Positions 16,915 through 59,967 of a DNA stretch of 64,000 nt are shown here, one piece after another (position 1 is the first letter of the stretch; each line of letters opens with the position of its first letter). The stretch lies in the IMG/VR virus record IMGVR_UViG_3300024054_000549; one strand, 5' to 3'. This DNA is from a virus. Taxonomy: Duplodnaviria > Heunggongvirae > Uroviricota > Caudoviricetes. A model generated the notes under the pieces. That model did no database searches and was not told where the DNA came from. It worked only from the letters and a program-made list of their open reading frames with translations. The translations under genes and the position numbers were made by a program.

Positions 16915-17409
16915 TTAGTACCAAACGAAGTATTTATTTTTTGATAATTTGATAGATCCTAGAATTTGTTTTTTCATTAAACACATTTTAGTTTCTTGCT
17001 CTGTTAGAATGTACCCAATTTTTCGGTGCATTGTACTAACAAAATTTTGATCAAATACAAAGAATTCTTTCCCTGCAATTCTAATCTTATCTTTTGCTAT
17101 TCCTGAACCGAATAATTCTTTGTCGCTAACCTCAAATTCCGTTCGGAACCATGAGCATGGAAGTTTATCCGTGATATCTGTGAAAGAATTGGTAGCTATT
17201 CCATTCTTGATATTATGCGGAAGAAGAACATTAGATGTATTGATAAATGTGCAATTATTAAGTTTAATAAATGCGTCACTTTCTTCGCTGTAGGATTTTA
17301 AAAGCATTGAAATATTAGCTATATGAATGTTCATTTTCTGAACAAGTTCGTTAGCCAAGATATACTTTTTATTTAAGAACATAATGATTCCTTTTTGGTT
17401 TAGGTGCAA
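16915..17409 (-). CDS. hypothetical protein (possible DNA-binding)
   Basis: ORF. Confidence 0.3.
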   Translation of the reverse strand: MHLNQKGIIMFLNKKYILANELVQKMNIHIANISMLLKSYSEESDAFIKLNNCTFINTSNVLLPHNIKNGIATNSFTDITDKLPCSWFRTEFEVSDKELFGSGIAKDKIRIAGKEFFVFDQNFVSTMHRKIGYILTEQETKMCLMKKQILGSIKLSKNKYFVWY

Positions 17410-17495
17410 CCATTATATAATCATTTTATCCAAATGTAAACATTTTTTTTGAAATATATGAAAAAACCTAACTCATAAGAGCTGGGGTTCAATAG

Positions 17496-17855
17496 TGGTG
17501 GACTCGGCGGGAATCGAACCCGCGTCCGAAAGCCCTCTACAGGCAGTTCTACATACTTAGTCCGGTCATTTGGTTTTAACCTGCGCGACGCCGGCCGAAC
17601 AGGCTGCGAACAGGCGATCCACCTTAGTTTTAGCGTTGCGACAAGTGACCCGGCGCATTGCGAGTTTCCTGATGTTACCGTACTGCCGGTTGCCCGGCCC
17701 AGCCCGGAAACTGGCTGGTGTACGGTCTGGCATTAAGCGGCCAGAGCGAAACGCTCGTCGTTGGCGTTTGTTTGTTTCCAGTAGATTTACGAGGGAACTG
17801 GTCCTCGGTATGCACTACGCTGCTTCGCGACCCCCGTCGAAACCAGGTCGAGCCC
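17496..17855 (-). ncRNA. ssrA: tmRNA (ssrA), full length, one-piece
   Basis: 5' GGGCUCGACCUGGUUUCGACGGGGGUCGCGAAGCAGCGUAGUGCAUACCGAGG.. and 3' ..GGACGCGGGUUCGAUUCCCGCCGAGUCCACCA; acceptor stem GGGCUCG/CGAGUCC with G3-U pair; tag reading frame GCC AAC GAC GAG CGU UUC GCU CUG GCC GCU UAA (ANDERFALAA); ~58% GC in a ~33% GC genome. Confidence 0.9.
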
Positions 17856-17865
17856 AAAAAATCAA

Positions 17866-19440
17866 TTAAATGCCAAGTTCCTTATACAATTTTTCAATAT
17901 CATTTTCAAATGGATTTTGAGTTTTGAATTCTGAATCAATTTCTTTCAATTTCTTAAAATCATCTTTAATAATATTCTTAATCTCTCGATCAGCAAAGTT
18001 TTCAGCATTTTTTTGTTTATTTAATTCTGTTAACCCAAAGTCATCCGAAATATTCTTCTTTCGACCAGAAGGCTTATAAACACCTATTTCCAATTCTTGA
18101 TCAATTTGACCAGGTTGAACAAGAACTTCATTAAATCTCATATGATCATAATCAATTCCCATTATCCATGTATCTGTTCGACCGTTATATCTATTCTTAG
18201 TTATTTTACATACAATTTCTTTTTTGGCTTTCATTTCTTCATTCTGAAGCAAGAACATCATGAAATCCGCAGTCATTGCTGTTCCCATAGAATCAGAAAC
18301 ATTGGAATTATCAGCATTATCAATATTGTTAGTTGCCCCTCGATTTAACTGGCTTGCTGAAATGATTGGAATGTTTTGTTTCTTTGCAACTGCTCGAACC
18401 TCTTCACCAATAGATTTTACATAACTATATAACCCAGCGCTTGGTGAAACAAGATCAGATTTCATGATTCCGATGTAATCAACGAACACTAAATCAAATA
18501 CAACGTTCTGCTCAATTCTGTAAGTTTCAATTAATTGTTCTAGCATTAACGGACTGAATGAACCGGCTGGATAATCCTTAACATAGAACTTTCCACAAGT
18601 TCCAGACGTTTTAATTCTCTCGTAAGCAGCCAGAATCATTTCTTTAGTTAGTACAGGGCGATCTAATTGAGAAATTTCACCTGGAGTTTTTGACAGATCA
18701 ATTAAACTATTGATGGGGAGATCCATGGCATTAGCATGAACACGCTTCATAATCTCCTTATCAGCCATTTCTAGTGATACTAAAAGAATGTTCTTATTCT
18801 GTTTAAAGATTCCACTGATTAAATCAGTCATTAGTAGTGATTTACCAACACCCTGAGCGGCTAGAATTATATTCAAAGTTCCTGGTAAAAATCCAGGACC
18901 AAGACGTTTATTGAGTTCTTTATGTTGTGTTCTAATGCCAAGCATTCTGGCACTATAGTACTCAATCATCGTCTCGATATCATCGAAATCTAGTCCAAGA
19001 TCAGCATCGATAGAAACCTTCGCCCGCTCATCCATAAGCTCCTGAGCTTTTAGCTTAAGTTTATCATCTTTTCGCATTAACCCATCTGAACCAACTTGGA
19101 GTGCTTCCAAATACAGAGAATCTTTTACCCATGTTATAGTTTCATCACACAAGAATTGAATGGAACTTACTTCATCAGTTTTTGATATAACTTGAAGCGC
19201 TTTGATTATTTCATTTCTAATATCTGCGTTACTGACATTTTTAACCTGAGCTACTAATTCAGTTAGTTCTGGGCGATTTTTATATTTCCCGTAGTACTCT
19301 TTGATTAAACCAAATAATTCTTGGTTACCAATATTCATAAAGTACTTCTTCTTCAGAATGGGCATAACCTTTCCGAAGAACTCACCGTTCAGTACTAATT
19401 TTTTTAACAAAATATATTCGAACTGTTCAAACTCTTGCAT
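17866..19440 (-). CDS. 41: replicative DNA helicase (DnaB-like), T4 gp41 homolog
   Basis: Walker A QGVGKS, SLEMA, VDYIGI ~ T4 gp41 GVNVGKS, SMEMA, VDYLGI. Confidence 0.9.
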   Translation of the reverse strand: MQEFEQFEYILLKKLVLNGEFFGKVMPILKKKYFMNIGNQELFGLIKEYYGKYKNRPELTELVAQVKNVSNADIRNEIIKALQVISKTDEVSSIQFLCDETITWVKDSLYLEALQVGSDGLMRKDDKLKLKAQELMDERAKVSIDADLGLDFDDIETMIEYYSARMLGIRTQHKELNKRLGPGFLPGTLNIILAAQGVGKSLLMTDLISGIFKQNKNILLVSLEMADKEIMKRVHANAMDLPINSLIDLSKTPGEISQLDRPVLTKEMILAAYERIKTSGTCGKFYVKDYPAGSFSPLMLEQLIETYRIEQNVVFDLVFVDYIGIMKSDLVSPSAGLYSYVKSIGEEVRAVAKKQNIPIISASQLNRGATNNIDNADNSNVSDSMGTAMTADFMMFLLQNEEMKAKKEIVCKITKNRYNGRTDTWIMGIDYDHMRFNEVLVQPGQIDQELEIGVYKPSGRKKNISDDFGLTELNKQKNAENFADREIKNIIKDDFKKLKEIDSEFKTQNPFENDIEKLYKELGI

Positions 19441-20854: not shown

Positions 20855-21194
20855 TTCGATTCAATTCTGTTCTATCCATTAATTCACAATATTCTTTGGC
20901 TTTTTGAATTGATATCTTAAAGAAATCAGAAATGTAACCAATCATTTTTTCTTCGTTCTCTGATTCTGCTTTTGGATAAGGGATATATTTTACCTTCCCT
21001 GCGAATGATTTCTTAATCAAAAAGTACTGATTCTCAACTGGGATATCAAAATACATATTTATGAGATTCGCAGCACCAATAGTATAAGGATTTCCAGATA
21101 GCCATTTACAGAATATAAAAGATGGTATTTTTTGAATTTCTTCTAATTCTGGTGTTTTCTTTAGATCTAACGCTGACGTTATAATTTTGAACAT
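20817..21194 (-). CDS. hypothetical protein (possibly clamp-loader small subunit-like)
   Basis: ORF immediately downstream of pol C-part; weak resemblance only. Confidence 0.3.
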   Translation of the reverse strand: MFKIITSALDLKKTPELEEIQKIPSFIFCKWLSGNPYTIGAANLINMYFDIPVENQYFLIKKSFAGKVKYIPYPKAESENEEKMIGYISDFFKISIQKAKEYCELMDRTELNRIVKMYEEYESKK

Positions 21195-22312
21195 TACCAG
21201 TCCTCTAACTTTTCAGTTTCTTTATATAGATCATAACCCAATGGCTCAACCATCAGTTCTAGAGGTTTAAGAAAATTCTTGACGAATTGTTCATCGTAAT
21301 TAACCAAATCTCCTATCTCTGAAATGAAGTTATCATTAGTATAAGCGATAATTTCTGTATCGAATTTGTTAGGTTCAACTAGAAAAAGTCGTTTGCATTT
21401 ATCACCAGCTTGAATCGGGGCGTATTTATTTTCAATTGAATTCTTTTTGATGTACAAATTATGTTTAATGGCAGCCCTTGAGCCAAATGGAACACCTTTA
21501 TCAGAAAGATCGTAATCAATTCTAGATACTGCTCCAACTGAAGCTATGTCGTTTAAATCAGAATTCTTAAATTCTGATTTGATTTTTCCAATCCAATCTT
21601 TAAGATTACTTTCATTACCGTCGAGAATAATTGGAATAGATTCTTTAAGATATTTTTTAGACCATTTCGGTGTTGAACTTTTAATGATTTCTAAACCTGT
21701 GACCTTGATTTTCGGCTCAGAATCAGCATAACGAGTTCCCTCATTATCCCTTAGTCTAATATAGTATTTTTTCTTAGCTGTAAATACCCCAACATCGGCA
21801 ATAGCTTCTCGTTCTACACCAATTTTATCTTTGTTATAAGCGTTTAATTCAGATGCAAAGTCATCGATAGTTTTTTTGATAACTGGTTGAATGATTTTTT
21901 TCTCAAATGCATCAGCCCAATCGACATATTCATTTATACTTAAGTTTGGGTTATTTACCTTGAACCTTTCCATAAATGGGTTAATTGTATAATAAACGGA
22001 ATCAGTATCTCCACTTACGATGTACGTTCCATCTATTTTGAGCAGATTTTGGAGCGTACTCTCAATATTGTTAGCTAATTTTCGAATAAAGTACCGACCA
22101 TTACCTGTAATAGCGGCAGCCATATCTTCGTTGAATAATGAGAACCATCTATTCGCCATAGCGCCATACAGAGAGTTCATAATGGTCTTTAGAGCTAACT
22201 GATTCGTTTTATACAGCGACTCCTTAGATTCTGCTTCAGCGTACAATTTCTTAAGTTCAGAATCTGATAATTCCCTGAGTTCAGATTCAGTGTATTCAAG
22301 AACGTCATTCAT
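21194..22312 (-). CDS. 43: DNA polymerase (family B) C-terminal part, gp43B (motifs B and C)
   Basis: NSLYGAMAN (KxxxNSxYG) and VSGDTDSVYY (DTDS); N-terminus aligns to T4 gp43 residues just after its motif A region. Confidence 0.9.
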   Translation of the reverse strand: MNDVLEYTESELRELSDSELKKLYAEAESKESLYKTNQLALKTIMNSLYGAMANRWFSLFNEDMAAAITGNGRYFIRKLANNIESTLQNLLKIDGTYIVSGDTDSVYYTINPFMERFKVNNPNLSINEYVDWADAFEKKIIQPVIKKTIDDFASELNAYNKDKIGVEREAIADVGVFTAKKKYYIRLRDNEGTRYADSEPKIKVTGLEIIKSSTPKWSKKYLKESIPIILDGNESNLKDWIGKIKSEFKNSDLNDIASVGAVSRIDYDLSDKGVPFGSRAAIKHNLYIKKNSIENKYAPIQAGDKCKRLFLVEPNKFDTEIIAYTNDNFISEIGDLVNYDEQFVKNFLKPLELMVEPLGYDLYKETEKLEDW

Positions 22313-22520
22313 TTAGTAACCCAATCGTTCGGACAATTCTATTGATGTATTCAAGTTGTTTCATTTTTCGCTCGGCCCTTGAGTATTTAGAATAACATTC
22401 TATACAAAAGTATGTTAATCTTTTCGATCGCGCGTGAAAAGAAAACTCAGTTTCCTTTTTGTTCTCATAACAGCATTGACAAAATTTTAATTTGTCACTT
22501 GTTCCTCTAGCTATTTTCAT
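22305..22520 (-). CDS. small CxxC..CxxC zinc-ribbon-like protein inserted at the polymerase split
   Basis: FCQCCYEN....FCIECYSKY; start overlaps stop of 43A (ATGA), end overlaps start of 43B. Confidence 0.45.
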   Translation of the reverse strand: MKIARGTSDKLKFCQCCYENKKETEFSFHARSKRLTYFCIECYSKYSRAERKMKQLEYINRIVRTIGLLNE

Positions 22521-24106
22521 TGTTTTCTTTCATTTAGAATAGAACCAATAAGAACTTTTCGTTTTTCATAATCGAACATAATCTTTTTCGATTTTTTACG
22601 ATCGTCATAAATTTCTTGAACCATTTCAGGAATCATACCAAGTTTATCTTTAGAAAAAACAGCACCATTAATACCTAATGAATAGTTGTATTTCTTTATA
22701 AGCTCAGTTACTGCTCCAAAGATATTCTGATCCAATTCTAATCTGGCACCCTCGTCTTGATCATTAAAATATGACAAGATAAGATCCCGCAAATCGCTCG
22801 GAAGCTTATACTTAGGGACAAAAGTCTCAGGACTCATATTAAATCCGACCATACCCAATAATGGGTACATGGAATTAACGTCACCAGAAAGAATCCATTT
22901 GTGTCTACCTTTAACTGGATCCCTAACATAACCGCCCACAACAGATGGTTGAGAATTATCTGACCTAGGAGGCATAACCCGTTTATTCAGCATGGATTTA
23001 TTCATGATGTACTGACTCCATGGTTTAACTGTTCCCATGGCATCGCTAATCTGAACGCCCATTTTTTCGGCAATCATATTCATAAGAACAGTAAGATTCT
23101 TAGAATCATCAATTTTCTTAATAAGATATGTATCTTTTACACCATAATAAACAAAGTCAGAGTGAGCTAATTCCTTTACCTCTTCATTTAGTGAATTAAT
23201 TGCAGCGTTATAAATTTTTGAAGATTTTTGTTCATCAGTTGGATTGTTCGGTACAATATATTTTCCAGTATAGAAATCATCAAAACTTGCATATTCTGTA
23301 TGCTGTACCTTATTTTCCTTTAACTCGATTTCAGCAATAGTATCCAAAGAATATGATGGCCTAGGGTCAAGAACGAATTTTTTATACACAATCATTAAAT
23401 CGGTATAAAAATGACCATCAGCATTGAAATTAAATTCTATTTTACCGTCCTGAACAGCTTCAGAATATGAAACATTCCCATAATTCGATAAATCGTTAAC
23501 ATTCATTCCCAAATTTTTAATTCGATTGTAAATGAATGGGAAGTCGAATCCAGCACCGTTCCAAGCGTAAATGATCAATGGATCTAATTTTTTAAAGAAT
23601 GAAATGTAAGTTTTGAGTAACTGAACTTCATCCTTGCAATTGATGTACTCAATCTCGTAAGGGAACTCATAATCACTCTGATGTTTCCAATCTTTCAATC
23701 CTAATGCGAACATTTTGTTCTCTTTAGAATCGAAAAATTGCATTAGAGTAATCTGTTGATCGGCTTTCTCGGGCAATGGAAAACCATTTTTAGATCGTGT
23801 TTCAATATCTAGGTACCAGATTCTTGGTGAAGAATTGTAAGCATTCTTATTCCAATAATTATCACGGATATTTCTATAAATTGGATCGAGGAATCCGTAA
23901 GAATCTCTTCCCTCTTTAGCATTACCTTGTTTTTTATCTAAAGTAATATCTTCATCAAGGATGAATTTATAAAGACCCCTCGAGCTTGGCTCGTACCATT
24001 CATACGGTAACGTTATTTCTGATTTAACAGATTTTTTAAGTTCAGTGTCGTAATATCTCTCGAAAAATGAGAATTTGTTCTTATATGCTGACTCGAATAA
24101 TTTCAT
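22517..24106 (-). CDS. 43: DNA polymerase (family B) N-terminal part, gp43A (3'-5' exonuclease domain + motif A)
   Basis: YAWNGAGFDFPFIYNRI ~ T4 gp43 FTGWNIEGFDVPYIMNRV (Exo II); SGDVNSMYPLLG ~ SFDLTSLYPSII (motif A). Confidence 0.9.
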   Translation of the reverse strand: MKLFESAYKNKFSFFERYYDTELKKSVKSEITLPYEWYEPSSRGLYKFILDEDITLDKKQGNAKEGRDSYGFLDPIYRNIRDNYWNKNAYNSSPRIWYLDIETRSKNGFPLPEKADQQITLMQFFDSKENKMFALGLKDWKHQSDYEFPYEIEYINCKDEVQLLKTYISFFKKLDPLIIYAWNGAGFDFPFIYNRIKNLGMNVNDLSNYGNVSYSEAVQDGKIEFNFNADGHFYTDLMIVYKKFVLDPRPSYSLDTIAEIELKENKVQHTEYASFDDFYTGKYIVPNNPTDEQKSSKIYNAAINSLNEEVKELAHSDFVYYGVKDTYLIKKIDDSKNLTVLMNMIAEKMGVQISDAMGTVKPWSQYIMNKSMLNKRVMPPRSDNSQPSVVGGYVRDPVKGRHKWILSGDVNSMYPLLGMVGFNMSPETFVPKYKLPSDLRDLILSYFNDQDEGARLELDQNIFGAVTELIKKYNYSLGINGAVFSKDKLGMIPEMVQEIYDDRKKSKKIMFDYEKRKVLIGSILNERKQ

Positions 24107-28473: not shown

Positions 28474-29052
28474 TTATATCTTTGAATCGATCAATCCTAT
28501 TTTAATAGCTTCTTCATAACCCATGAAATAATCTCGTTGTGTTCGTTTTTTCATATCTTCTAATGTGCTTTTTCCTTTTGAAAAAGTTACCATATCCGAT
28601 AAAATTTTATCTTGTAAGTACTTTGATTCATTAAAATCAATTTCAATATCATGAATTGTACCATACATTCCTGAAGAAACACTGTGAATCATGATCCTTG
28701 TGTTCTCTGTGCACTTCCTAGTTCCTGTTCCAGAAGCTAATAGATATGCTCCCATACTAGCACAAAATTCGATTCCGTGTGTATTAACTTTAGATTCGAT
28801 TGAGTAAATGACATCTTTAATAGCTAAACCGGAATAAACCGAACCACCAACAGAACTAATATATAGATCAATCGGCTCGGTCGGATTATCTGAATTTAAC
28901 CATAACAGTTGCATAATAATGTTCGTGCAAGCACTATTATCAATTTCACCATTTAAGTAAATAATTCTATTCTGTAGTAATTTAGTTGGTAAATCAAAAG
29001 ATTTTGATGTCCGACCTAATTTTTCAATAACACTAGGAAAAAAACTCATCAA
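28474..29052 (-). CDS. clpP: ClpP-like ATP-dependent protease proteolytic subunit (S14 family)
   Basis: colinear with ClpP: RIIYLNGEID..DLYISSVGGSV..CASMGAYLLASG..RIMIHSVS (Ser/His catalytic residues in context). Confidence 0.8.
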   Translation of the reverse strand: MMSFFPSVIEKLGRTSKSFDLPTKLLQNRIIYLNGEIDNSACTNIIMQLLWLNSDNPTEPIDLYISSVGGSVYSGLAIKDVIYSIESKVNTHGIEFCASMGAYLLASGTGTRKCTENTRIMIHSVSSGMYGTIHDIEIDFNESKYLQDKILSDMVTFSKGKSTLEDMKKRTQRDYFMGYEEAIKIGLIDSKI

Positions 29053-30086: not shown

Positions 30087-31184
30087 TTATTTCCTGTCAG
30101 ATGATTGAATAATGCGTTTAAATAAATTCTTATTGTTTAATTCAGAATCATATTGTGCGAGTTTTTTATAAACATCTGGTTCATTTTTCTTCAAAGATTT
30201 AAGAAACGAAATACAAATTTCAATTTCTAATGAGTACAGATAACACAGAAGATAAAAAATATCACTTTCACCATATTTATTACTTAGCTGATTAGCCAAT
30301 TCAATTTTCTGTATTGCTTCAATCTTAGAAATTTTTTCTGAAATATATGAACCTAATTCTTCAATTGTTGATACGGAATTTTTATGCTTAAGAATTAAAT
30401 TCTCAATATCGGTTATCTTTATTGAATCTTTGTAATTTTTGAAGAATACATAAAACTGAGAAGCAACCTCTGTTCCAATTTTTCCTTTCATAACTTGGAA
30501 CAGAATGTCATTGCTTATTTTATCGGCATTATTAAGATAATTACTGAGTTTAGCCCATGATCTAGGAGTTGCTCCAGTTCCTTCGCTGGAAAGCCAGTGC
30601 AATCGATCTGGATGCTCAGAAATAAATCCAATTATGGTATCGTTAATACCTGATTTTCTAGCCCATTTTAACCAAGATTCAGCATCTGGTTCAATTTTTA
30701 CATGCAAGAATCTATCCAGTAAGGCAGTATCTAATTCATCAACTTGGTACTGATCTGCTGGATTAATTGCCGCAACAATTAAAGTTCTTGAACCAGAAGT
30801 AACGGGTAACTCGTGTTCATGAATTTTCCGTTCAAGAACTAATTGCATAGCAGATTGTCTAACGTCAGTTTGAGCTCGATTTAATTCATCTAAAAATAGA
30901 ATACATTTCTTGCCATTTTTTGAAGCATTTCTCAATCGTTGAAGCCAAATTGGAACACTCCATGTAGTTAATGTTAATCCATCTGATTGAACAATATGAG
31001 GAATTCCAATTAAATCACCGATTTCGTTGTGAGATAAAAACAATTCCTCGATGTGGTAATCATTTTCAGTAGCGAATTGATTAACTATTTGAGATTTTCC
31101 AATACCATGAACACCTTCTAAGATAACTGTGTCGTCAGCAATTGCTGCAGCACTGATGATATTCTTAGCTGTTTGAATATTCAT
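30087..31184 (-). CDS. MoxR-like AAA+ ATPase
   Basis: Walker A GVHGIGKSQ, Walker B ILFLDELNRA, sensor region IVAAINP. Confidence 0.75.
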   Translation of the reverse strand: MNIQTAKNIISAAAIADDTVILEGVHGIGKSQIVNQFATENDYHIEELFLSHNEIGDLIGIPHIVQSDGLTLTTWSVPIWLQRLRNASKNGKKCILFLDELNRAQTDVRQSAMQLVLERKIHEHELPVTSGSRTLIVAAINPADQYQVDELDTALLDRFLHVKIEPDAESWLKWARKSGINDTIIGFISEHPDRLHWLSSEGTGATPRSWAKLSNYLNNADKISNDILFQVMKGKIGTEVASQFYVFFKNYKDSIKITDIENLILKHKNSVSTIEELGSYISEKISKIEAIQKIELANQLSNKYGESDIFYLLCYLYSLEIEICISFLKSLKKNEPDVYKKLAQYDSELNNKNLFKRIIQSSDRK

Positions 31185-31772: not shown

Positions 31773-33998
31773 TTAAAACTTCATTTCAAATTTAGCTCCT
31801 ACAGAATAACCATTTACCCCACGCTCACCGTAGGATTTAATAATTTCAGCACTGAAATTCGACTGTTCATTAGAGCGGAAGATATAATTGAAGCCTAGGT
31901 TAACTTCGCGCTCTGAAGGTTTAATATTAACCTTCTCATTGTGATAAATGATATTCCCATCCATATCACGAGCTACTGGAACATGCAAATTCATCGATCC
32001 TTTAACAACACTAATCGGACTAGATAACCGAACTCGTGCATCGGATTTTTTATCAATTGACCATCCATACTGGACGCCAGCACCAATTCCATGGAAACTA
32101 GAAGTTTCAGAAATCAAACTGTTAGAATTTTTTGTCCCTGGGGAAACACCATAGTCAAGCCATGCTCCCCATCCTGTCCATTCTGAATTTCCTAGTAAGC
32201 CACGGAAATAATGAGTTCGAGTATTCTCTGTGTTCAATGCCCCGCTAGAAACAGTACCAAACATTCCAGCAGCTTGACCGTAATGAATGGTTAAATCACC
32301 TAATGTATAACCAACTGTAACCTCACTTGTTCCTTCTTTAAGACCAAGTTTGAAATTGCCGGCGTTTAGCTGTTTAAATTCACCAAAATTATATTTTGAG
32401 TTAGTTACAACAACAGCTTTAGTCAAATCAATGTTAAATGCCCTGTCAAAATCATCTAGCACAACAGCATCACGAAGTGAACTAGACTTAAGAGCTGAAG
32501 CAACAGCAGCAGGAACAACGATAACAGTTTTATTCAGAGATGCCGAATTTGAATCAATCTTGGATCCCAATGGGAGCTTAATATCACCGATTGGTTTCAT
32601 TGCTTTTGCTACATTCAGTGAACCATTACCGTAAACATCATCAATACCAGGTTCACCGAGATCATCGGCTGTGGCGAAAATAATTTTAGTGATTTGACCA
32701 CCAGTCAAATGAGGGAATTTTTCAATTAGCAATGCTGCGGCACCAGAAACAACCGGAGCAGCCATACTCGTACCACTGAGCTGAATGGTTTCGAGTAATT
32801 TATAAGAACTAGTTGAATTAATGGCTGAACCAGGCGCTGTGATGTACCAATTCTTTGTAACACCAGCCTTGTTTGAATAAGAGGCAAGTTTCCCGGTTTC
32901 GTCTAATGCCCCAACAGCTATAAATCCACCGATTCCTTTTACTAAACCTTCATAGCCTTTAATAATTGGCAAGGCAGCAGGAAATCCGCATGACACGATT
33001 CCGGTTGAATCTGGCAAACAAGATTTCTTATCATTACCAGCAGCTGTAACAACAATCATTCCAGCATTAACGGCCTGAATAAATCCAGATGTGCTGAAAT
33101 CGGGTGTTGAAGTAAACCCAGAGTCCGTATACATGAAATTGAAAATTTCTTCATTAACAGGAAGGGGATTAACAACATTATACTTCATGGCAACGCCCAA
33201 TGAAAGGTTAGCTACTTTAGCCCCTTCTTTTACGGCAAGTTTAAGTCCACGATGTACATCTGTTGGATATAAAGTCCGACCAGAATCACCAAGAACCTTA
33301 ATTGGAAGAATTGTTGAATTAAATGCCACACCGTGAATACCACGATCATTTTTTGCAGCACCAATAATACCAGCAACATGTGTCCCGTGAATATTCTTAT
33401 CAACAGCACCTTCGGTAATAACACCATTTATAACGGTATATCCCAATTTAGCATTGTTAAATTCTTCACGCCGACCAAGGCCGGTATCAAGAACAGCAAC
33501 AGTCACACCATTCCCGGTATATCCCTGCTTATAAGCACTGTCCGCTCCGATAGCCGACAAAGCTCTGTTAAACAGATATTCTTTTGTTTGGTAATTAATT
33601 TCTGTTTGGACTGTGTTTGGATTTTGAGTTGTTGGATTCAATACATCATTGACTCTAACCCGTTCAGCTTGGAATAATTCAAGCGTGTCCTTAGTATCTT
33701 GAAGTTTATTTTTGTATTCTTCAGATTTACCTGCATCTTTGAAGTACTTATTATTAGTATACAGGTTGAGAAGAGTTCCGTAAGATTTCTCTAAACCCGT
33801 ATAGTTTTTAATCATGTTATCAAGCAAATTTAACTTTTCTTTACCATCTTTTAGCTTTGAGAACATATTAAATGTTTTAACATCAGCTACTTGAGATTCC
33901 ATCTGAATGATGTTTAACTCAGCTTCAGAAGCTATTGCTATGTCAGACATAGGAAATGTTAACGCAAGAGAGAGAACTAAAGGTTTAATTTTGCTCAT
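31773..33998 (-). CDS. secreted subtilisin-like serine protease (S8) with C-terminal autotransporter-like beta-barrel
   Basis: signal peptide MSKIKPLVLSLALTF; catalytic triad motifs VAVLDTGL, HGTHVAGII, GTSMAAPVVSGAAAL; C-terminus ..VGAKFEMKF ending in Phe (OM beta-barrel signature). Confidence 0.8.
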   Translation of the reverse strand: MSKIKPLVLSLALTFPMSDIAIASEAELNIIQMESQVADVKTFNMFSKLKDGKEKLNLLDNMIKNYTGLEKSYGTLLNLYTNNKYFKDAGKSEEYKNKLQDTKDTLELFQAERVRVNDVLNPTTQNPNTVQTEINYQTKEYLFNRALSAIGADSAYKQGYTGNGVTVAVLDTGLGRREEFNNAKLGYTVINGVITEGAVDKNIHGTHVAGIIGAAKNDRGIHGVAFNSTILPIKVLGDSGRTLYPTDVHRGLKLAVKEGAKVANLSLGVAMKYNVVNPLPVNEEIFNFMYTDSGFTSTPDFSTSGFIQAVNAGMIVVTAAGNDKKSCLPDSTGIVSCGFPAALPIIKGYEGLVKGIGGFIAVGALDETGKLASYSNKAGVTKNWYITAPGSAINSTSSYKLLETIQLSGTSMAAPVVSGAAALLIEKFPHLTGGQITKIIFATADDLGEPGIDDVYGNGSLNVAKAMKPIGDIKLPLGSKIDSNSASLNKTVIVVPAAVASALKSSSLRDAVVLDDFDRAFNIDLTKAVVVTNSKYNFGEFKQLNAGNFKLGLKEGTSEVTVGYTLGDLTIHYGQAAGMFGTVSSGALNTENTRTHYFRGLLGNSEWTGWGAWLDYGVSPGTKNSNSLISETSSFHGIGAGVQYGWSIDKKSDARVRLSSPISVVKGSMNLHVPVARDMDGNIIYHNEKVNIKPSEREVNLGFNYIFRSNEQSNFSAEIIKSYGERGVNGYSVGAKFEMKF

Positions 33999-34016
33999 TT
34001 CATCACCCATTAAAAA

Positions 34017-35579: not shown

Positions 35580-36236
35580 TTAAAATTTCTTAGCTGTTTC
35601 AATAATCGAATTAAAAACGGCTTGACGTTTAACAAAATACTGAAAAAGCCGCATAGTATTAAATGCATCAATATCTGCACGATGTGCCAATCCTTTAAAA
35701 GGCATTTTATAGATACCCATGGCAGAACCTAACCCACCCGCTGGCTTTTTTCCCTTTGCGATTTGATTGAATAAATGAAAAGTCTTGACATCTATCCATC
35801 TACGACCAAAGAATGGAAATTCAACATTTCGATCTTTGAATTCTTGCAGCAATTCAACTGAATCTCCTCCACCCCATGTTACAGGGTTCACGAAACAGTT
35901 ATGCTCTGATATCAAATCACCAAGTTCTTTTGCAAGATCGCTGTGTGAAATGGCATAGGTTTCGATATCTTGATCGGTAATACCAGTTAATGCTGTAATT
36001 TCTGGATAAATTGGCTCGTTAGGATCAATGTACCATTTTTTAACGATCCATTCAGATTCGTCACTTTCAACGGAACCGATAGCAACACCAACCTGAATAA
36101 TTTTCGGTTTTGGTGTGCTACCATCGGCTGTATTATTAAGTTCTAAGTCAAGAGCAAGAAAGTTCATTTTACTCGTCTGATTTACTAATAGTCCAGGTTC
36201 CATCACTGTTATCTGTCCAAATAAGAGTGTCTCCAA
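35580..36236 (-). CDS. DEDDh-type 3'-5' exonuclease (DnaQ/oligoribonuclease-like)
   Basis: exo I LALDLELNN, exo III HRADIDAFNT; true start probably MNFLALDL (~36167). Confidence 0.7.
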   Translation of the reverse strand: METLLFGQITVMEPGLLVNQTSKMNFLALDLELNNTADGSTPKPKIIQVGVAIGSVESDESEWIVKKWYIDPNEPIYPEITALTGITDQDIETYAISHSDLAKELGDLISEHNCFVNPVTWGGGDSVELLQEFKDRNVEFPFFGRRWIDVKTFHLFNQIAKGKKPAGGLGSAMGIYKMPFKGLAHRADIDAFNTMRLFQYFVKRQAVFNSIIETAKKF

Positions 36237-36360: not shown

Positions 36361-37149
36361 TTACTTCATCATCAATGAATTGAAATTAGCTGGCACAACA
36401 ATAGTCTGAACCTTCCCGTCACGAATTCCTTCAGAAATATTAATCATAGCCATAGCATTCATGTACTCAACTGCACCTTTGTTTGCATTCAAAGCAGCAA
36501 TACGTTCAGCCTCTTTCTTTGCTGTTGCAACTTCAACTTCTTTTTTCTTCAATTCATTTTGAGCTCGAACCAAATCATTAGCAGAAGCAATAATTGCATC
36601 AGCAGGAAGAATTTGACGAACTAGAACCTGTTGAACACTAATCGAGTCATCTAGTTTTTCAGATGCTAGAACTGCAACCATGGCTTCGCGAATTTCTTGT
36701 TCAATCTGAGTTCGAGCATCATTCATTTTCAATGCTTCGTACTTCCTTGCACTCTTATATGTTGCATTTCGTGCAATACGATAAATGTAGTTATACATTA
36801 GAAGAATGTCACCGTCTTTCGTTGCACTATGAAATTCTTTGTTCTTATCTATATATAGCTCTGCTACTTTTGCTGGATTGATTGAGTACACGATAGATAC
36901 ATCAAAGTCTTTAATTGTTGAGTTATCAGCTGCAAGCGGTGACATATCAGCAACATCAACTTGAACATCTTTTACACTGAAGGTTAATACTTCTCCGATA
37001 ATCGTTTGATTCCAGGAGCCAGGAAGCAGTTCTTCTTGTTTAATTTGTTTATCAAATCCTACCCGAACGCCAACCTCACCGGTTTCAATTCGAGTACAAC
37101 CAGAACTCATAATAGCCAATGCAATAGCAGACATCGCGAACATTTTCAT
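36361..37149 (-). CDS. SPFH/band-7 (prohibitin/HflKC-like) lipoprotein
   Basis: lipobox AIMSSGC; ETGEVGVRVGF.. SPFH domain; C-terminal Ala/Glu-rich coiled coil. Confidence 0.75.
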   Translation of the reverse strand: MKMFAMSAIALAIMSSGCTRIETGEVGVRVGFDKQIKQEELLPGSWNQTIIGEVLTFSVKDVQVDVADMSPLAADNSTIKDFDVSIVYSINPAKVAELYIDKNKEFHSATKDGDILLMYNYIYRIARNATYKSARKYEALKMNDARTQIEQEIREAMVAVLASEKLDDSISVQQVLVRQILPADAIIASANDLVRAQNELKKKEVEVATAKKEAERIAALNANKGAVEYMNAMAMINISEGIRDGKVQTIVVPANFNSLMMK

Positions 37150-39834: not shown

Positions 39835-40395
39835 TTAGTCCTTTACGTTAAAAGTTTCTTCATATTCCTGCTTCCAGTAAGGATCGCTCGTAATCGCTTT
39901 TTCACCTGGCGCCCATTTACCGTTAACAACATCACGAGCGTACATAAAGGAGCATTCAGCACTACTTGCAATAGCTTCTTCGCCCGGTTCCCATTGGTTT
40001 TTGATCAAATCCTGTGCGTACCAACATGAGTACATCGGGCTACTTGCAATTGCTTCTTCACCCGGAGACCAAGGCGCTTCGATTACAAAACGAGCATATT
40101 CAAATGAAAACCTTGGATCACTAGCAATAGCCTTTTCTCCAGGTGCCCAAGGACCTTTGATAATACGCCGGGCGTACTCACATGCATAATGCGCACTACT
40201 TGCTATTGCTTCTTCACCAGATGCCCACGGACCCTTAATGGTGTACCGAGCATACCAATATGAGTACTCCGGGCTTGTTGCCCACAAATGCTCCAGCTCT
40301 TGCTTCTTGTCTTTTGTGTCAGCCTTTATCCAAGCAAGGTCTAACGCATCATCGTTGTTGCGGTAATCCTTCATTTCTCTTAATCCTGTTCCCAT
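39835..40395 (-). CDS. 26-aa tandem-repeat family protein (5 repeats)
   Basis: ..LDLAWIKADTKDKKQELEHLW + 5x (P.YxY.YAR.VIKGPW.PGE.AIAS.) + DPYWKQEYEETFNVK. Confidence 0.7.
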   Translation of the reverse strand: MGTGLREMKDYRNNDDALDLAWIKADTKDKKQELEHLWATSPEYSYWYARYTIKGPWASGEEAIASSAHYACEYARRIIKGPWAPGEKAIASDPRFSFEYARFVIEAPWSPGEEAIASSPMYSCWYAQDLIKNQWEPGEEAIASSAECSFMYARDVVNGKWAPGEKAITSDPYWKQEYEETFNVKD

Positions 40396-40673
40396 TTGTA
40401 CACAGCGTAATAATCACCAGGTGCGCCAAACAAGTGTTCCATGATGGACTTCTTTACCGGAACGTATCCAGCAAAGAACTTTTCTTGCCTCCACCTACGC
40501 TTTGCCGGACGCACTCGGAACCAATGTCGGATTGGTTCGGTACCTTCTTCACCTGCCCATTCCATAAATTCCACAAGGATCTTATATCCATGCTTAGTAG
40601 CCAAGATATGGCCAGGAACTCTGCGGCTCCACTTACCATCGTAGCATACAGCAACAGTCTGTCCTCGCTTCAT
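40380..40673 (-). CDS. hypothetical protein, GC-enriched (about 46-50%)
   Basis: ORF directly downstream of early promoter copy. Confidence 0.4.
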   Translation of the reverse strand: MKRGQTVAVCYDGKWSRRVPGHILATKHGYKILVEFMEWAGEEGTEPIRHWFRVRPAKRRWRQEKFFAGYVPVKKSIMEHLFGAPGDYYAVYKWEQD

Positions 40674-40707
40674 TCCGAAATCCTTTCAATCACCGTTTCG
40701 GTAAGAT

Positions 40708-40735
40708 TATTATAACACAATTTCCTGAAATGTAA
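40708..40735 (-). promoter_or_regulatory. T4-early-type promoter copy
   Basis: gattattataacacaatttcctgaaatgtaaacac. Confidence 0.6.
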
Positions 40736-40806
40736 ACACTTCTGAAAAATATTTTTACAGGTTCGGATTAATTTTGATGTAGATGATTTGTAAAAAATTA
40801 AACATT

Positions 40807-41199
40807 TTACAATTTTACATCAAAGTATTGATTATAATGCTGTTTCCAATATGGATCACTAGCAATAGCTTTCTCGCCTTGTGGCCATTTACCTTTGATA
40901 ATATTGCGAGCATACCAGTATGAGAATTCTGGATTTTTTGCAATCACCTCTTCACCAGGAGACCAAGGGCCCTCAATAACATGATAAGTATACCAATATG
41001 AAAAATCTGGAGTTTTTGCAATCACCTCTTCACCAGGTACCCACGGGCCCTTAATAACATATCGAGCATATAAATATGCGTGTTCTGAACTTGTTGCCCA
41101 TACATGTTCTAGTTTTTGTTTCTTCTCTTTTGTGTTAGCTTTTTTCCATGCAAGGTCTAAAGCTTCAGACATTTTGGTATCTTGATTAACGCTTGACAT
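40807..41199 (-). CDS. 26-aa tandem-repeat family protein (3 repeats)
   Basis: conserved N-term ..LDLAWKKANTKEKKQKLEHVW, repeats, C-term DPYWKQHYNQYFDVKL. Confidence 0.7.
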   Translation of the reverse strand: MSSVNQDTKMSEALDLAWKKANTKEKKQKLEHVWATSSEHAYLYARYVIKGPWVPGEEVIAKTPDFSYWYTYHVIEGPWSPGEEVIAKNPEFSYWYARNIIKGKWPQGEKAIASDPYWKQHYNQYFDVKL

Positions 41200-49724: not shown

Positions 49725-50462
49725 TTATAATTTTACTTTGAAGTATTGTTCATACTCCTGTTTCCAGCGAGGATCACTTGCAATCGCTTTTTCTCCAGGT
49801 GGCCATGGGTTTTTGATAACATTGCGAGCATACTGATAAGCATAACATGCACTACTTGCAATCGCTTCTTCACCAGGTTCCCATGGACCATTGATGACAT
49901 GGTAAGCATACATATATGCATAATATGAATTACTTATAATCGCTTCCTCACCAGGTGGCCACACTCCGTTAACAACCTCACGAGCATATGTATACGCATA
50001 ATATGGCTTTCTTGCAATCACTTTTTCGCCAGGTTCCCACGGACCTTTGATTACGCGATGAGCATACATATATGCATATTTCGGATCGCTAGCTATTGCT
50101 TTTTCACCAGGTTCCCACGGACCTTTGATGACATGACAAGCATACATATACGCATATTCTGTGTTATTTGCAATAGCACTTTCTCCACGAGCCCATGGTC
50201 CTTTGGTAACATAATAAGCATACCAATATGCACATTTTGGATTACTAGCAATTGCTTCTTCACCTAGTGACCATGGTTTTCGAAGAACTTCATGGGAATA
50301 TTTAAATGCATATTCTGGATTACTTGCCCACAAATGTTCTAGTTCTTGTTTCTTCTCATTTGTATTTGCCACTTCCCAAGCAATCTCTGGCACTTTCAGG
50401 TGTGCATCTTTATATCCAAATAATGCATTTGGATCAGAATACAATTTGTAAAAGTTAAGCAT
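49725..50462 (-). CDS. 26-aa tandem-repeat family protein (7 repeats)
   Basis: MLNFYKLYSDPNALFGYKDAHLKVPEIAWEVANTNEKKQELEHLW + 7 repeats + DPRWKQEYEQYFKVKL. Confidence 0.75.
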   Translation of the reverse strand: MLNFYKLYSDPNALFGYKDAHLKVPEIAWEVANTNEKKQELEHLWASNPEYAFKYSHEVLRKPWSLGEEAIASNPKCAYWYAYYVTKGPWARGESAIANNTEYAYMYACHVIKGPWEPGEKAIASDPKYAYMYAHRVIKGPWEPGEKVIARKPYYAYTYAREVVNGVWPPGEEAIISNSYYAYMYAYHVINGPWEPGEEAIASSACYAYQYARNVIKNPWPPGEKAIASDPRWKQEYEQYFKVKL

Positions 50463-51045
50463 TTTGTAATTTTACATTAAAAGTTTTTTCATAATGCTGT
50501 TTCCAATATGGATCACTTGCAATCGCCTTCTCGCCTAGTGGCCATGAATTTTCGATAACATAATAAGCATATCTGTACGCACATTCTGAGTTACCTGCAA
50601 TCGCTTTCTCGCCCAATGGCCACGGTTTTTGAAGAACATAATGAGCATACCAATATGCATATCCCGGATTACTAGATATCGCTTTTTCACCAGATGGCCA
50701 CGGTTTTTTGATCACATCACGAGCATATAAAAATGCATATTTTGGATTATTAGCAAGCACTTTTTCTCCAAGCGGCCATTTACCTCCAACAATACCATAG
50801 GCGTACTCATAAGCATATTCTGTATTACTTGCAATCGCCATCTCTCCGGGCAACCACGGTTTTTTGATTACATAACAAGCATATAAAAACGCATGTTTTG
50901 GACTACTTACCCACAAATGTTCTAGTTCTTGTTTTTTCTCATTTGTATCTGCCACTTCCCATGCAACACTCGGTACTTTCAGGTGTGCATCTTTATATCC
51001 AAATAATTGATTTGGATCTGAATGCAATTTGTAAAAGTTAAGCAT
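50455..51045 (-). CDS. 26-aa tandem-repeat family protein (5 repeats)
   Basis: same architecture; start overlaps previous stop (AATGCTTAA). Confidence 0.75.
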   Translation of the reverse strand: MLNFYKLHSDPNQLFGYKDAHLKVPSVAWEVADTNEKKQELEHLWVSSPKHAFLYACYVIKKPWLPGEMAIASNTEYAYEYAYGIVGGKWPLGEKVLANNPKYAFLYARDVIKKPWPSGEKAISSNPGYAYWYAHYVLQKPWPLGEKAIAGNSECAYRYAYYVIENSWPLGEKAIASDPYWKQHYEKTFNVKLQNA

Positions 51046-58802: not shown

Positions 58803-59384
58803 TTACAGTTTTACCTTAAAGTATTGTTCATACTGCTGTTTTAAATATGGATCACTAGATATTGCCTTCTCTCCAGGTTCCCATGGATGTTTGATTACAT
58901 CACGAGCATATCTGTAAGCATATTCTGGACTTGTTGCAATCGCTTCCTCACCAGGTTCCCATGGTTCCCGAAGAATATAATAAGCATACACATACGCATA
59001 TTTCGGATCACTAGATATTGCTTTCTCACCAGGTTCCCATGGTTTTTTAAGAACATAACAAGCATATTTAAACGAATGTTCTGGATTACTTGCAATAGCT
59101 TTCTCTCCAAGTTCCCATGGTTGTTTGATTACATGGTAAGCATACACATACGCATATTTCGGATCACTAGATATTGCCTTCTCTCCAGGTTCCCATGGTT
59201 CCCGAAGAACTTCATAGGCATATTTAAATGCATATTTCGGACTACTTACCCACAAATGTTCTAGTTTTTGTTTCTTCTCTTTTGTGTCAGCCATTTCCCA
59301 AGCAATACTTGGTACTTTCAGATGTGCATCTTTGTATCCAAATAATGTATTTGGATCAGAATGTAATTTGTAGAAGTTAAGCAT
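58803..59384 (-). CDS. 26-aa tandem-repeat family protein (5 repeats)
   Basis: same architecture. Confidence 0.75.
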   Translation of the reverse strand: MLNFYKLHSDPNTLFGYKDAHLKVPSIAWEMADTKEKKQKLEHLWVSSPKYAFKYAYEVLREPWEPGEKAISSDPKYAYVYAYHVIKQPWELGEKAIASNPEHSFKYACYVLKKPWEPGEKAISSDPKYAYVYAYYILREPWEPGEEAIATSPEYAYRYARDVIKHPWEPGEKAISSDPYLKQQYEQYFKVKL

Positions 59385-59967
59385 TTGGTAATTTTACATT
59401 AAAAGTTTTTTCATACTGCTGCTTCCATTTTGGATCACTCACTATTGCTTTCTCGCCAGGTGCCCATGGTTGTTTGATTACATGGTAAGCATACATATAT
59501 GCATAATATGGATTACTTGCAATAGCTTTCTCTCCAAGTTCCCATGGATGTTTGATTAATTCACGGGCATACCTATATGAATAATATGAACTACTTGCAA
59601 TTGCTCTCTCACCAGGCTCCCATGGTTTTTTGATTACATCACGAGTATACCTATATGAATATTCTGGGTTACTGGAAATCACCTTTTCTCCAAGAGGCCA
59701 CAAATTTTCAATTACATTGTAAGCATACATATATGAATACCTTGGATCACTTGCAATCGCGTTCTCACCCGGTGGCCATGGTTTCTTGATAACCGTTTGT
59801 ACATACCAATATGCATACCTCGGATCACTTGCCCACAAATATTCTAGTTCTTGTTTCTTCTCAGTTGTGTCTGCAAAATCCCATGCAACACTCGGCACTT
59901 TTAAATGTGCATCTTTGTATCCAAATAATGTATTTGGAACAGAATGTAATTTGTAGAAGTTAAGCAT
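59377..59967 (-). CDS. 26-aa tandem-repeat family protein (5 repeats)
   Basis: same architecture. Confidence 0.75.
   Translation of the reverse strand: MLNFYKLHSVPNTLFGYKDAHLKVPSVAWDFADTTEKKQELEYLWASDPRYAYWYVQTVIKKPWPPGENAIASDPRYSYMYAYNVIENLWPLGEKVISSNPEYSYRYTRDVIKKPWEPGERAIASSSYYSYRYARELIKHPWELGEKAIASNPYYAYMYAYHVIKQPWAPGEKAIVSDPKWKQQYEKTFNVKLPNA

Follow-up and report, generated by a model that had tools for sequence, protein, structure and literature searches.

The 64,000-nucleotide stretch of IMG/VR virus record IMGVR_UViG_3300024054_000549, referred to here as the window (the whole stretch of DNA analysed), contains a gene for transfer-messenger RNA (tmRNA, ssrA) on its minus strand. The gene lies between the gene for a DnaB/gp41-like replicative helicase and an open reading frame (ORF) for a conserved phage protein, ORF155. 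The TAA stop codon of the helicase is found at 17866-17868 and position 1 of the tmRNA at 17855, which agrees with the distance of 10 nt given in an earlier note that was made from the sequence alone. The features of the locus are collected in Table 1.

Identity and architecture of the tmRNA gene

The whole 64-kb window was searched with ARAGORN, which returned the tmRNA as its sole RNA gene, with the tag ANDERFALAA*. A full-model match to RF00023 (model positions 1-374) was obtained with Rfam cmscan at the same coordinates, with a score of 207.3 bits and an E value of 3.5e-83. The gathering score of RF00023 is 47 bits, and at the scores obtained chance is no concern. A full-length one-piece tmRNA had been proposed in the earlier note, together with these two programs as checks, and both score the gene as a tmRNA. 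The unpermuted one-piece form is reported by ARAGORN (no asterisk), unlike the tmRNAs of two viral contigs described below (L142 and L143) and of phage XacN1. The contrast in GC content that the note had described is also found. The GC content is 0.58 for the RF00023 match (cmscan) and 0.57-0.585 for the gene against 0.34 for the window, and the gene is the strongest GC peak of the window.

The tRNA-like domain is complete. It consists of a 7-bp acceptor stem (GGGCUCG/CGAGUCC) with the G3.U354 pair, a T-arm (GCGGG-UUCGAUU-CCCGC, read in the gene as GCGGGUUCGAUUCCCGC), the discriminator A and an encoded CCA. The motifs of the first pseudoknot (PK1), GUGCAUACCGAGG followed at a distance by CCCUCGUAAA, were also read in the gene sequence. 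PK1 is located upstream of the resume codon and PK2-PK4 downstream, the long helix 2 closes the structure, and all of the consensus hairpins align in cmscan. The second stems of the pseudoknots lie outside the Rfam model, and that of PK1 (CCAGU/ACUGG) was read by eye. The tag frame opens with a GCC (Ala) resume codon, without an AUG, and ends in ...ALAA. Its UAA stop codon is located in the loop of helix 5, for which the hairpin CUGGC-CGCUUAAU-GCCAG was obtained from the cmscan alignment. The acceptor stem with its G3.U pair, the canonical T-arm, the ACCA end, the pseudoknot motifs and the tag end ..GCU CUG GCC GCU UAA had all been listed in the earlier note, and each is present. A complete, intact one-piece tmRNA gene is carried by a T4-like phage.

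Table 1. Features of the tmRNA locus. Positions are those of the window; L145 and L147 are the bacterial contigs Ga0233425_10000169 and Ga0233424_10000015.
Feature	Position	Strand	Basis
One-piece tmRNA (ssrA), 360 nt, 3' CCA encoded	17496..17855	minus	ARAGORN; RF00023; 354/360 identity to bacterial copies L145/L147
Acceptor 5' strand GGGCUCG, tmRNA 1-7, including G3 of the G3.U alanine identity pair	17849..17855	minus	Sequence; cmscan
PK1 region CCGAGG ACCAGUU CCCUCG UAAAUCU ACUGG, tmRNA 48-78	17778..17808	minus	cmscan hairpin; same as bacterial copy
Tag frame GCC AAC GAC GAG CGU UUC GCU CUG GCC GCU UAA, tmRNA 91-123	17733..17765	minus	ARAGORN; cmscan
Sole part differing from the bacterial copy (6 substitutions)	17547..17673	minus	Alignment to L145/L147 copy
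T-arm, acceptor 3' strand CGAGUCC, discriminator A and CCA, tmRNA 333-360	17496..17523	minus	Sequence; cmscan; same as bacterial copy
10-nt spacer UUGAUUUUUU, presumed RNase P leader, U at -1	17856..17865	minus	Sequence; same in five independent assemblies
Trailer hairpin and U6, terminator-like, weakly similar to the bacterial ssrA terminator	17461..17490	minus	RNA fold; local alignment
Strong sigma-70-like promoter of the next gene, TTTACA-17-TATAAT (11/12); limit of the foreign segment on the downstream side	17412..17440	minus	Promoter scan
DnaB/gp41-like replicative helicase, 524 amino acids	17866..19440	minus	Pfam DnaB_C 94.8 bits; gp41-like annotation in relatives
ORF155, conserved phage tandem winged-helix protein, downstream neighbour	16915..17382	minus	Homologs; AlphaFold; Foldseek

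Bacterial source and phage junctions of the gene

The window encodes a tail sheath, a portal, both topoisomerase II subunits, a clamp loader and a split family-B DNA polymerase. An ATP-dependent ligase, a deoxynucleoside monophosphate (dNMP) kinase, a GroES-like co-chaperonin and an RNA ligase are also encoded. The closest cultured relatives are the Vibrio myophages pv27, phiKT1024, phiTY18, Va1 and TDDLMA (about 191-196 kb). The helicase is 66% identical in amino acid sequence to that of Vibrio phages pv27/phiKT1024 and ~43% identical to those of the Campylobacter CP220-like phages. These relatives and identities point to a distant uncultivated member of that T4-like myophage group, with a genome of roughly 160 kb, as the source of the window.

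A degenerate pattern back-translated from the tag matched at least 120 bacterial loci, most of them in Burkholderiales or other Betaproteobacteria. Among the matches listed, the best betaproteobacterial tmRNAs are about 75-76% identical to the phage gene, and a donor among the reference genomes was set aside for this reason. The acceptor stem of the phage gene differs by two compensated base pairs from the usual betaproteobacterial stem of the GGGGCCG/CGGCUCG type. The donor was found by scanning metagenome contigs for this unusual 5' end of the tmRNA. Two contigs were matched, Ga0233425_10000169 (167.5 kb) and Ga0233424_10000015 (253 kb), which are identical to each other across 5.5 kb. Their tmRNA has the same tag and the same acceptor stem as the phage gene and is identical to it at 354 of the 360 positions (98.3%). 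A further contig (L146) that shares a 21-mer was found to contain no tmRNA and is irrelevant.

The two contigs have a GC content of 59-60% and encode GroEL/GroES, 1-deoxy-D-xylulose-5-phosphate synthase (Dxs), FolE2, glycosyltransferases and an aminotransferase; from this composition and gene content they are therefore assigned to a bacterial chromosome. The encoded GroEL shares 92% identity with the Parasulfuritortus cantonensis protein, and the next named matches are from Thiobacillaceae and from metagenome-assembled genomes of Hydrogenophilales. Within IMG sample 3300023208 the bacterial and phage alleles are located on separate contigs (L147 for the former, L152 and L155 for the latter).

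Both junctions between the tmRNA and phage DNA were examined in other assemblies. The identical helicase protein occurs in five of these: ENA ERZ27250187 and ERZ27250211, Logan SRR35367208 and SRR7617225, and JGI 3300023208. At the 5' junction all five assemblies, from three pipelines, contain the same helicase DNA as the window, the same 10-nt spacer and then 8-140 nt of the tmRNA. The 3' junction is present in four contigs, ENA k141_495521 (61.6 kb) and JGI Ga0233424_10037995, Ga0438288_0202492 and Ga0438325_0184220. These contigs begin at tmRNA positions 42, 82, 83 and 346, extend into ORF155, the dNMP kinase and the ligase, and differ from the window by no more than one mismatch. In the three that include the variable region (L153, L155 and L157), the phage variant is found at all six positions at which the phage gene differs from the bacterial one. 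Just the last 15 nt of the gene are covered by L156.

An assembly artefact would require that bacterial ssrA reads were misjoined to phage DNA, or that two phage contigs were bridged through the bacterial repeat. Such an error is conceivable in that all of the short-read assemblies examined break inside the tmRNA, at least one of these samples also contains the bacterial copy (L147), and the synteny with all relatives is broken at this site. It is nevertheless extremely improbable. AT-rich phage DNA directly flanks the tmRNA on both sides in the ENA, Logan and JGI data, at five 5' and four 3' junctions. The copy on the phage side has six variants and a distinct 3' flank that are absent from the co-occurring bacterial contig. 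The repeat common to the two alleles spans tmRNA positions 1-182, and the ENA contigs end where a de Bruijn graph with k = 141 would break at a real shared repeat: L148 ends at position 140 (k-1) and L153 starts at position 42 (183-141). The bacterial path is spanned by the long contigs L145 and L147, and therefore the only consistent pairing joins phage sequence entering the repeat to phage sequence leaving it. The two ENA contigs total ~160.6 kb, which fits the 160,076-bp contig carrying ORF155 that is listed in the cluster metadata. The earlier note had named a chimeric assembly with host DNA as the finding that would overturn a phage-encoded gene; the recurrence of the junctions with phage DNA in independent assemblies speaks for the phage.

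The breaks themselves are found within the tmRNA in every short-read assembly of the phage (contigs L148, L149, L152, L153, L155 and L157). Several further contig ends fall at tmRNA positions 81/82/83 across differing samples and pipelines. As a practical caution, a gene that is 98% common to phage and host breaks short-read assemblies at that gene.

A transfer from bacterium to phage is favored because the composition, the context and the typical betaproteobacterial tag all agree. The capture appears to be recent and to have involved DNA of the ssrA locus of a Thiobacillaceae/Parasulfuritortus-like betaproteobacterium of ~60% GC. The earlier note had suggested capture from a higher-GC proteobacterium and an alignment to candidate host genes, and the 98.3%-identical copy in a co-occurring betaproteobacterium bears this out. 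The identity, integrity and origin of the tmRNA gene are together regarded as very nearly certain. The donor, which resembles sulfur oxidisers, is most likely the host of the phage.

Boundaries of the captured segment and its probable transcription unit

The stretch homologous to the bacterial locus starts 1 nt ahead of the first G of the tmRNA. No similarity to the bacterial flank is seen in the preceding 70 nt (P = 0.93), and the bacterial promoter region was therefore left out of the transfer. On the 3' side the identity runs 5 nt beyond the CCA and then becomes patchy across the hairpin and the U-run. Local alignment of the 3' flanks gives 24 identities in 33 positions, with indels, and a score of 21 compared with 12.4 ± 2.0 for shuffled sequences (P about 0.0015). 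The captured piece would thus consist of the part that codes for the mature RNA, probably followed by the terminator, without the bacterial promoter.

The trailer hairpin of the phage gene has a folding energy of -8.8 kcal/mol (z -2.5) and is followed by U6; it was not flagged by a consensus terminator scan. The hairpin of the bacterial ssrA is strongly terminator-like, with a folding energy of -17.6 kcal/mol (z -5.3). In the consensus promoter scan a promoter-like site for the helicase is found at 19488-19460, and no promoter is detected between this site and the tmRNA. A candidate noticed by eye at 17909-17881 (TTGAAA-17-TATAAG) lacks the conserved T at the last (-7) position of the -10 element. 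An equivalent of the promoter of the next gene is found upstream of the ORF155 homolog in one relative (L162). The likely order of elements is the helicase promoter, the helicase, the 10-nt spacer, the tmRNA, the hairpin with U6 and the next promoter. The tmRNA is probably co-transcribed with the helicase, as the earlier note had proposed. This agrees with the lack of an intervening promoter in the scan, with the hairpin and U6 behind the gene and with the loss of the bacterial promoter.

A block consisting of a DHH phosphoesterase gene followed by the helicase gene is kept in all relatives. ORF155, the dNMP kinase and the ligase are not found within 4 kb downstream of the helicase in the relatives. 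The homologs of ORF155 are instead preceded there by nrdB-nrdA and small ORFs, and followed by the dNMP kinase as in the window; no nrdAB is found in the 64-kb window. From this comparison of the arrangements, the tmRNA appears to mark the exact point at which this phage has newly brought two conserved blocks together. The junction fits a genome of ~160 kb compared with 191-205 kb in the relatives. The relatives gave no confirmation of the join through synteny, as in all of them the shared gene order breaks off on the 3' side of the helicase. No tmRNA is found near the helicase in two cultured relatives (pv27 and Va1) or in 18 relatives from IMG/VR.

In four of the IMG/VR relatives the helicase gene itself is interrupted (L014 2111-6177, L018 3-3733, L019 1710-4969 and L020 187-1945). 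Two segments of the helicase protein are located ~0.5-2.5 kb apart, which would fit the presence of an intein, an intron or an inserted homing endonuclease.

The boundaries of the segment were also considered with respect to how it was captured. A transcript rather than random DNA could have been taken up by the phage, either through reverse transcription of the precursor or through its use as a template or bridge in the repair of a double-strand break. The homology starts no more than ~6 nt from the expected start of the bacterial transcript, so that the promoter is excluded, and it ends in the U-run of the terminator. T6 runs flank the foreign segment, which lies exactly at the genome rearrangement junction. 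This route is speculative and rated as improbable; if true, RNA-templated capture would be an unrecognised route to stable-RNA genes in a T4-like phage.

ORF155 belongs to a family with at least 84 phage homologs, which are proteins of ~156 amino acids in this phage group. The AlphaFold model (predicted local distance difference test score of 91) shows a tandem winged-helix protein, and the best Foldseek match is 6a51, from the Campylobacter chemotaxis regulators CheP/CheQ. The protein is probably a DNA-binding regulator with its own near-consensus promoter. It is adjacent to the tmRNA and of the size of SmpB, and it was considered as a divergent SmpB; this was rejected on the basis of the winged-helix fold and of a profile search in which no match to SmpB was obtained among solved structures. 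ORF155 was also rejected as a part of the tmRNA acquisition, as the family is conserved and follows nrdAB in relatives that lack a tmRNA there.

Three groups of genes elsewhere in the window were noted. The family-B polymerase is split into an exonuclease/N-terminal part at 22517-24106 and a C-terminal polymerase part at 21194-22312, both on the minus strand. The gap of ~200 nt between them holds a called ORF of 71 amino acids, which is seen in L148. At least seven paralogous ORFs (130-245 amino acids) with a short repeated motif are located at 39835-41199, 49725-51045 and 58803-60604 on the minus strand. Spurious multiple matches to HTH_35 and 1-cysPrx_C are produced by this motif, and two of the ORFs lie in a stretch of 46-49% GC (~39.9-40.7 kb), the second-highest GC region of the window. 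A proteostasis-type cluster on the minus strand (28474-29052, 30087-31184, 31773-34010 and 36361-37149) contains a ClpP-family protease (150 bits), a MoxR-like AAA ATPase, a subtilase of 745 amino acids (Peptidase_S8) and an SPFH/Band 7 protein.

Substitutions, predicted role and relation to other phage RNAs

The six substitutions, from bacterium to phage, are C183A, C208U, C230U, A246U, U272G and G309A, at window positions 17673, 17648, 17626, 17610, 17584 and 17547, respectively. They are located in the PK2-PK3 linker, PK3, PK4 and helix 2. Positions 246 and 272 form a pair in the stem of PK4, and their change from A-U to U.G is compensatory. Position 309 pairs with position 42, where G.U becomes A-U. 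The remaining three substitutions are unpaired in the consensus; by eye, C208U would change a C-G pair to U.G in a plausible second stem of PK3. The matching Rfam scores are 207.3 bits for the phage gene and 206.3 bits for the bacterial copy, and 74 of the 87 consensus pairs are canonical in each. Positions 1-182 and 310-360 are identical, and no differences are found in the tRNA-like domain, PK1, the resume codon, the tag or helix 5.

The distribution of the changes was compared with simulated substitutions. Six random substitutions break no canonical pair with P = 0.15, which is not significant alone. The probability that the tRNA-like domain, PK1, the tag and helix 5 (191 nt) are all left untouched is about 0.011, and the probability that one pair is changed at both partners and is still canonical is about 0.007. 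Four of the six changes are from GC to AU and one is the reverse, which matches the AT bias of the phage. Taken together, the substitutions indicate selection on the structure since the two copies diverged, and no decay.

The alternative of a neutral passenger has to be weighed against this result. An intact host gene could have entered by illegitimate recombination at the rearrangement junction and could be retained without benefit because it has had no time to decay. Just six differences in 360 nt, the absence of the gene from 20 of the 20 relatives examined, and the location at a synteny breakpoint, where junk could be tolerated, would be expected of such a passenger. The gene is also seen in one clonal phage population with the same helicase DNA across samples, and the test for unbroken helices gives P = 0.15 alone. 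The flank that appears to have been transferred with the gene (24/33, with indels) is, however, far more diverged than the gene (354/360). The substitutions avoid the functional core (P about 0.011) and include a compensatory pair (P about 0.007). The tidy layout of stop codon, RNA, terminator and promoter, the deletion pressure on phage genomes and the recurrence of tmRNA genes across many unrelated phages (PMC9004378) are likewise not what a passenger would predict. A passenger is considered unlikely, although it is a serious prospect.

A supply of tmRNA for ordinary trans-translation is the preferred explanation for the presence of the gene in the phage. The tmRNA would be transcribed as the 3' tail of the helicase transcript. 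Its 5' end would be cut by host RNase P, with a U at -1 as in the bacterium, and its 3' end would be trimmed by host exonucleases back to the encoded CCA. Host alanyl-tRNA synthetase would charge the RNA through the G3.U pair, and the charged tmRNA would join host SmpB and EF-Tu in trans-translation. Because the phage copy has the resume codon, the tag, PK1 and the tRNA-like domain of the bacterial gene without any change, it should act exactly as the host tmRNA. Ribosome rescue and ...ALAA tagging would in this way be kept supplied during the takeover of the cell, and the likely role is to supplement the trans-translation of the host during infection.

Rare-codon stalls and truncated mRNAs are classic tmRNA substrates. 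The GC content at third codon positions is 0.27 in the phage and 0.71 in the bacterium. Per 1000 codons, UUA is used 26 times in the phage and 2 times in the bacterium, and AGA 11 times and under 2 times, respectively. The demand for rescue could be high because the codon usage of the phage is so different from that of the bacterium. According to references cited in PMC12656738, lambda-P22 hybrid phages and Mu require tmRNA for normal development.

The window was searched for partners of the tmRNA. A tblastn search of the 64-kb window with E. coli SmpB, a query confirmed as SmpB by Pfam (194 bits), returned nothing below E = 3, and no SspB is found in the window. The co-chaperonin and the protease of the phage were examined as possible co-acquisitions. 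The phage Cpn10 is 26% identical to the bacterial GroES and 56-59% identical to the GroES of Vibrio phages, so that its acquisition together with groES-groEL-ssrA was rejected. The phage ClpP, considered as a co-acquired degradation partner, is 50-53% identical to the head maturation protease of the lineage and was rejected as well. The GroES-like and ClpP-like genes appear to be ancestral to the phage lineage and not derived from the host. An Rnl2-type RNA ligase (PHA02142 OB domain and RNA_ligase) at 61458-62477 and an RNase T-like exonuclease at 35580-36236, both on the minus strand, are also present; together with the tmRNA they could suggest an investment in RNA repair or translation maintenance.

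Manipulation of the host was considered as a different use of the tmRNA, in which host proteins are tagged to recycle amino acids, stress is sensed, or abortive-infection toxins that cleave mRNA or tRNA are countered. Such roles have been proposed for other phage tmRNAs (PMC9004378, PMC7162821), and the Rnl2-like RNA ligase, the RNase T-like exonuclease and the ClpP-family protease of the window could be fitted to them. The tRNA-like domain, the resume region and the tag are, however, the same as those of the bacterium, and nothing suggests an altered specificity. The ClpP-like gene is ancestral and is annotated as a head maturation protease in the relatives, and the window encodes neither SspB nor SmpB. 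A manipulative role is accordingly given a low probability.

Several points weigh against the supply of tmRNA for trans-translation during infection. The assignment of the host is based on gene sharing and co-occurrence only, and with 25 points the gap in GC content between the two is large. The window, which covers 64 of ~160 kb, encodes no SmpB, and the function would be wholly dependent on the host unless partners are located in the ~96 kb outside. If this phage also has many tRNAs, the argument from rare-codon stalling is weaker; the relatives pv27 and phiTY18 carry 23-24 tRNAs (PMC12063606). The six changes may have arisen in either lineage, and the donor may be a relative of the sampled bacterium. 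A relative as donor would equally explain a flank far more diverged than the gene, and the compensatory pair and the spared core could then have arisen on the bacterial side. The gene is known from this phage population only, in which the helicase DNA is identical in five samples, and its stay in a phage lineage may have been short. An identity of 98.3% would also be compatible with a neutral passenger acquired very recently.

With these points taken into account, recent capture of a host ssrA, co-transcription with the helicase and a supply of tmRNA for ordinary trans-translation are together the best explanation, with a probability of about 0.6. For the part that concerns expression, processing and benefit to the phage, which is read from the sequence, the chances are put at somewhat better than even.

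Phage tmRNAs have been described before, in 402 of 18,146 genomes (about 2.3%) and in 133 unique forms (Buchholz et al. 2022, PMC9004378). A two-piece tmRNA is found in the T4-like OM43 phage Melnitz, and those of pelagimyophages are also two-piece (PMC9004378). Some huge phages carry a tmRNA and SmpB (PMC7162821), and phages of Bradyrhizobium elkanii carry tmRNAs (PMC12656738). The role proposed in these reports is the one preferred here. The tmRNA of the Xanthomonas jumbo phage XacN1 is permuted and has the tag ANANTFDYALAA. In a blastn search of 50,697 phage records the present gene matched only XacN1, QDWS359 and Phass-1, over 35-42 nt of its 3' end. The exact tag and 5'-end patterns are absent from IMG/VR, where the 3' 25-mer matches only a tRNA-Ala and two unrelated permuted tmRNAs. 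None of the phage records searched matches beyond the last ~40 nt, and the case is therefore an independent acquisition of an already known phenomenon. It adds no new kind of element and leaves the understanding of trans-translation unchanged.

The last 25 nt of the tmRNA are present in three unrelated viral contigs of IMG/VR (L141, L142 and L143). One of these has an array of 15 tRNAs, in which a tRNA-Ala has the matching acceptor and T-arm; the other two have permuted (two-piece) tmRNAs with the tags ATNSVSAKSAKVLAFPARDAAALPMAA and ATTKPLAMAAAA. A metagenome contig of 48% GC (L144) contains a shorter tmRNA at 366-684 on the minus strand (319 nt, 87.8 bits) with the long unusual tag AKTKNVLAVSPKFRATSMGLQFANAA. 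Its first 21 nt and last 36 nt are the same as those of the phage gene.

The closest counterpart of the phage gene is the Burkholderiales-type chromosomal ssrA of Ga0233425_10000169 and Ga0233424_10000015, with which it shares 354 of 360 positions, the tag, the acceptor stem, PK1-PK4, the Rfam score and the encoded CCA. The phage copy is located between the helicase and ORF155 at 34% GC, whereas the bacterial copy is beside groESL at 60% GC. The phage copy lacks the bacterial upstream region and promoter, and its terminator is diverged and weaker (-8.8 compared with -17.6 kcal/mol). With phage tmRNAs in general it has in common a complete gene in a lytic-type tailed phage, a bacterial origin and a presumed role in sustaining or exploiting trans-translation. 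The tmRNA of Melnitz is also located within an early or replication-related transcription unit; it points to a former host, whereas the present gene is near-identical to that of a co-occurring bacterium. Other differences are that the gene is in one piece and not permuted, with no riboswitch and no SmpB in the window, and that its donor, its two junctions and the absence of the promoter are known at nucleotide resolution. The combination of tmRNA and SmpB of the huge phages is not seen in the 64-kb window of this ~160-kb genome.

The tRNAs of T4-like phages such as pv27 and phiTY18 are likewise host-type translation RNAs in large lytic phages. They are made from phage transcripts, matured by host RNase P and exonucleases, and thought to aid translation of AT-rich genomes. 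T4 carries a tRNA cluster. A tmRNA differs from these RNAs in that it rescues stalled ribosomes and tags proteins, needs SmpB and decodes no codons. In contrast to the tRNA clusters, a single gene follows the helicase here, and no tRNA is found in the window by ARAGORN.

The 3' fragments of ssrA that serve as attP or attL sites in temperate phages and islands are also identical to the 3' end of a host ssrA (PMC12595487, PMC9004378). A corresponding role at the level of DNA was considered, in which the homology to the host ssrA (182 and 51 nt) is used for recombination or the 3' end acts as an attachment site (an attB decoy or attP). The 3' ends of tmRNA genes are common integration sites of islands and prophages, ssrA fragments occur in temperate phages (PMC12595487, PMC9004378), and positions 1-182 and 310-360 match the bacterial gene perfectly. 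The phage gene is full-length (model positions 1-374) and not a 3' fragment, and an attachment site needs no conservation of the 5' half, PK1 or the tag. Its neighbors are the helicase and ORF155/dNMP kinase, and no integrase is adjacent to it or present among the ~50 ORFs of the window that were scanned. The genome is T4-like and of lytic type, and the cultured relatives are reported to be lytic and without lysogeny genes (PMC12063606). The gene is not assigned to the class of ssrA attachment sites, and a role of this kind is rated as very improbable.

The locus represents a resolved capture event, for which the donor and phage alleles are both in hand and coexist in one sample. The limits of the segment, the absence of its own promoter, its co-option into the helicase unit and its first substitutions can be read to the nucleotide. 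A concrete and testable host prediction is obtained for an uncultivated T4-like phage of ~160 kb, which would be notable given the gap of ~25 points in GC content. The six allele-specific positions would allow phage and host tmRNA to be separated by RNA sequencing in infected cells, and the long-standing question of whether phage tmRNAs are used becomes directly testable in this system.

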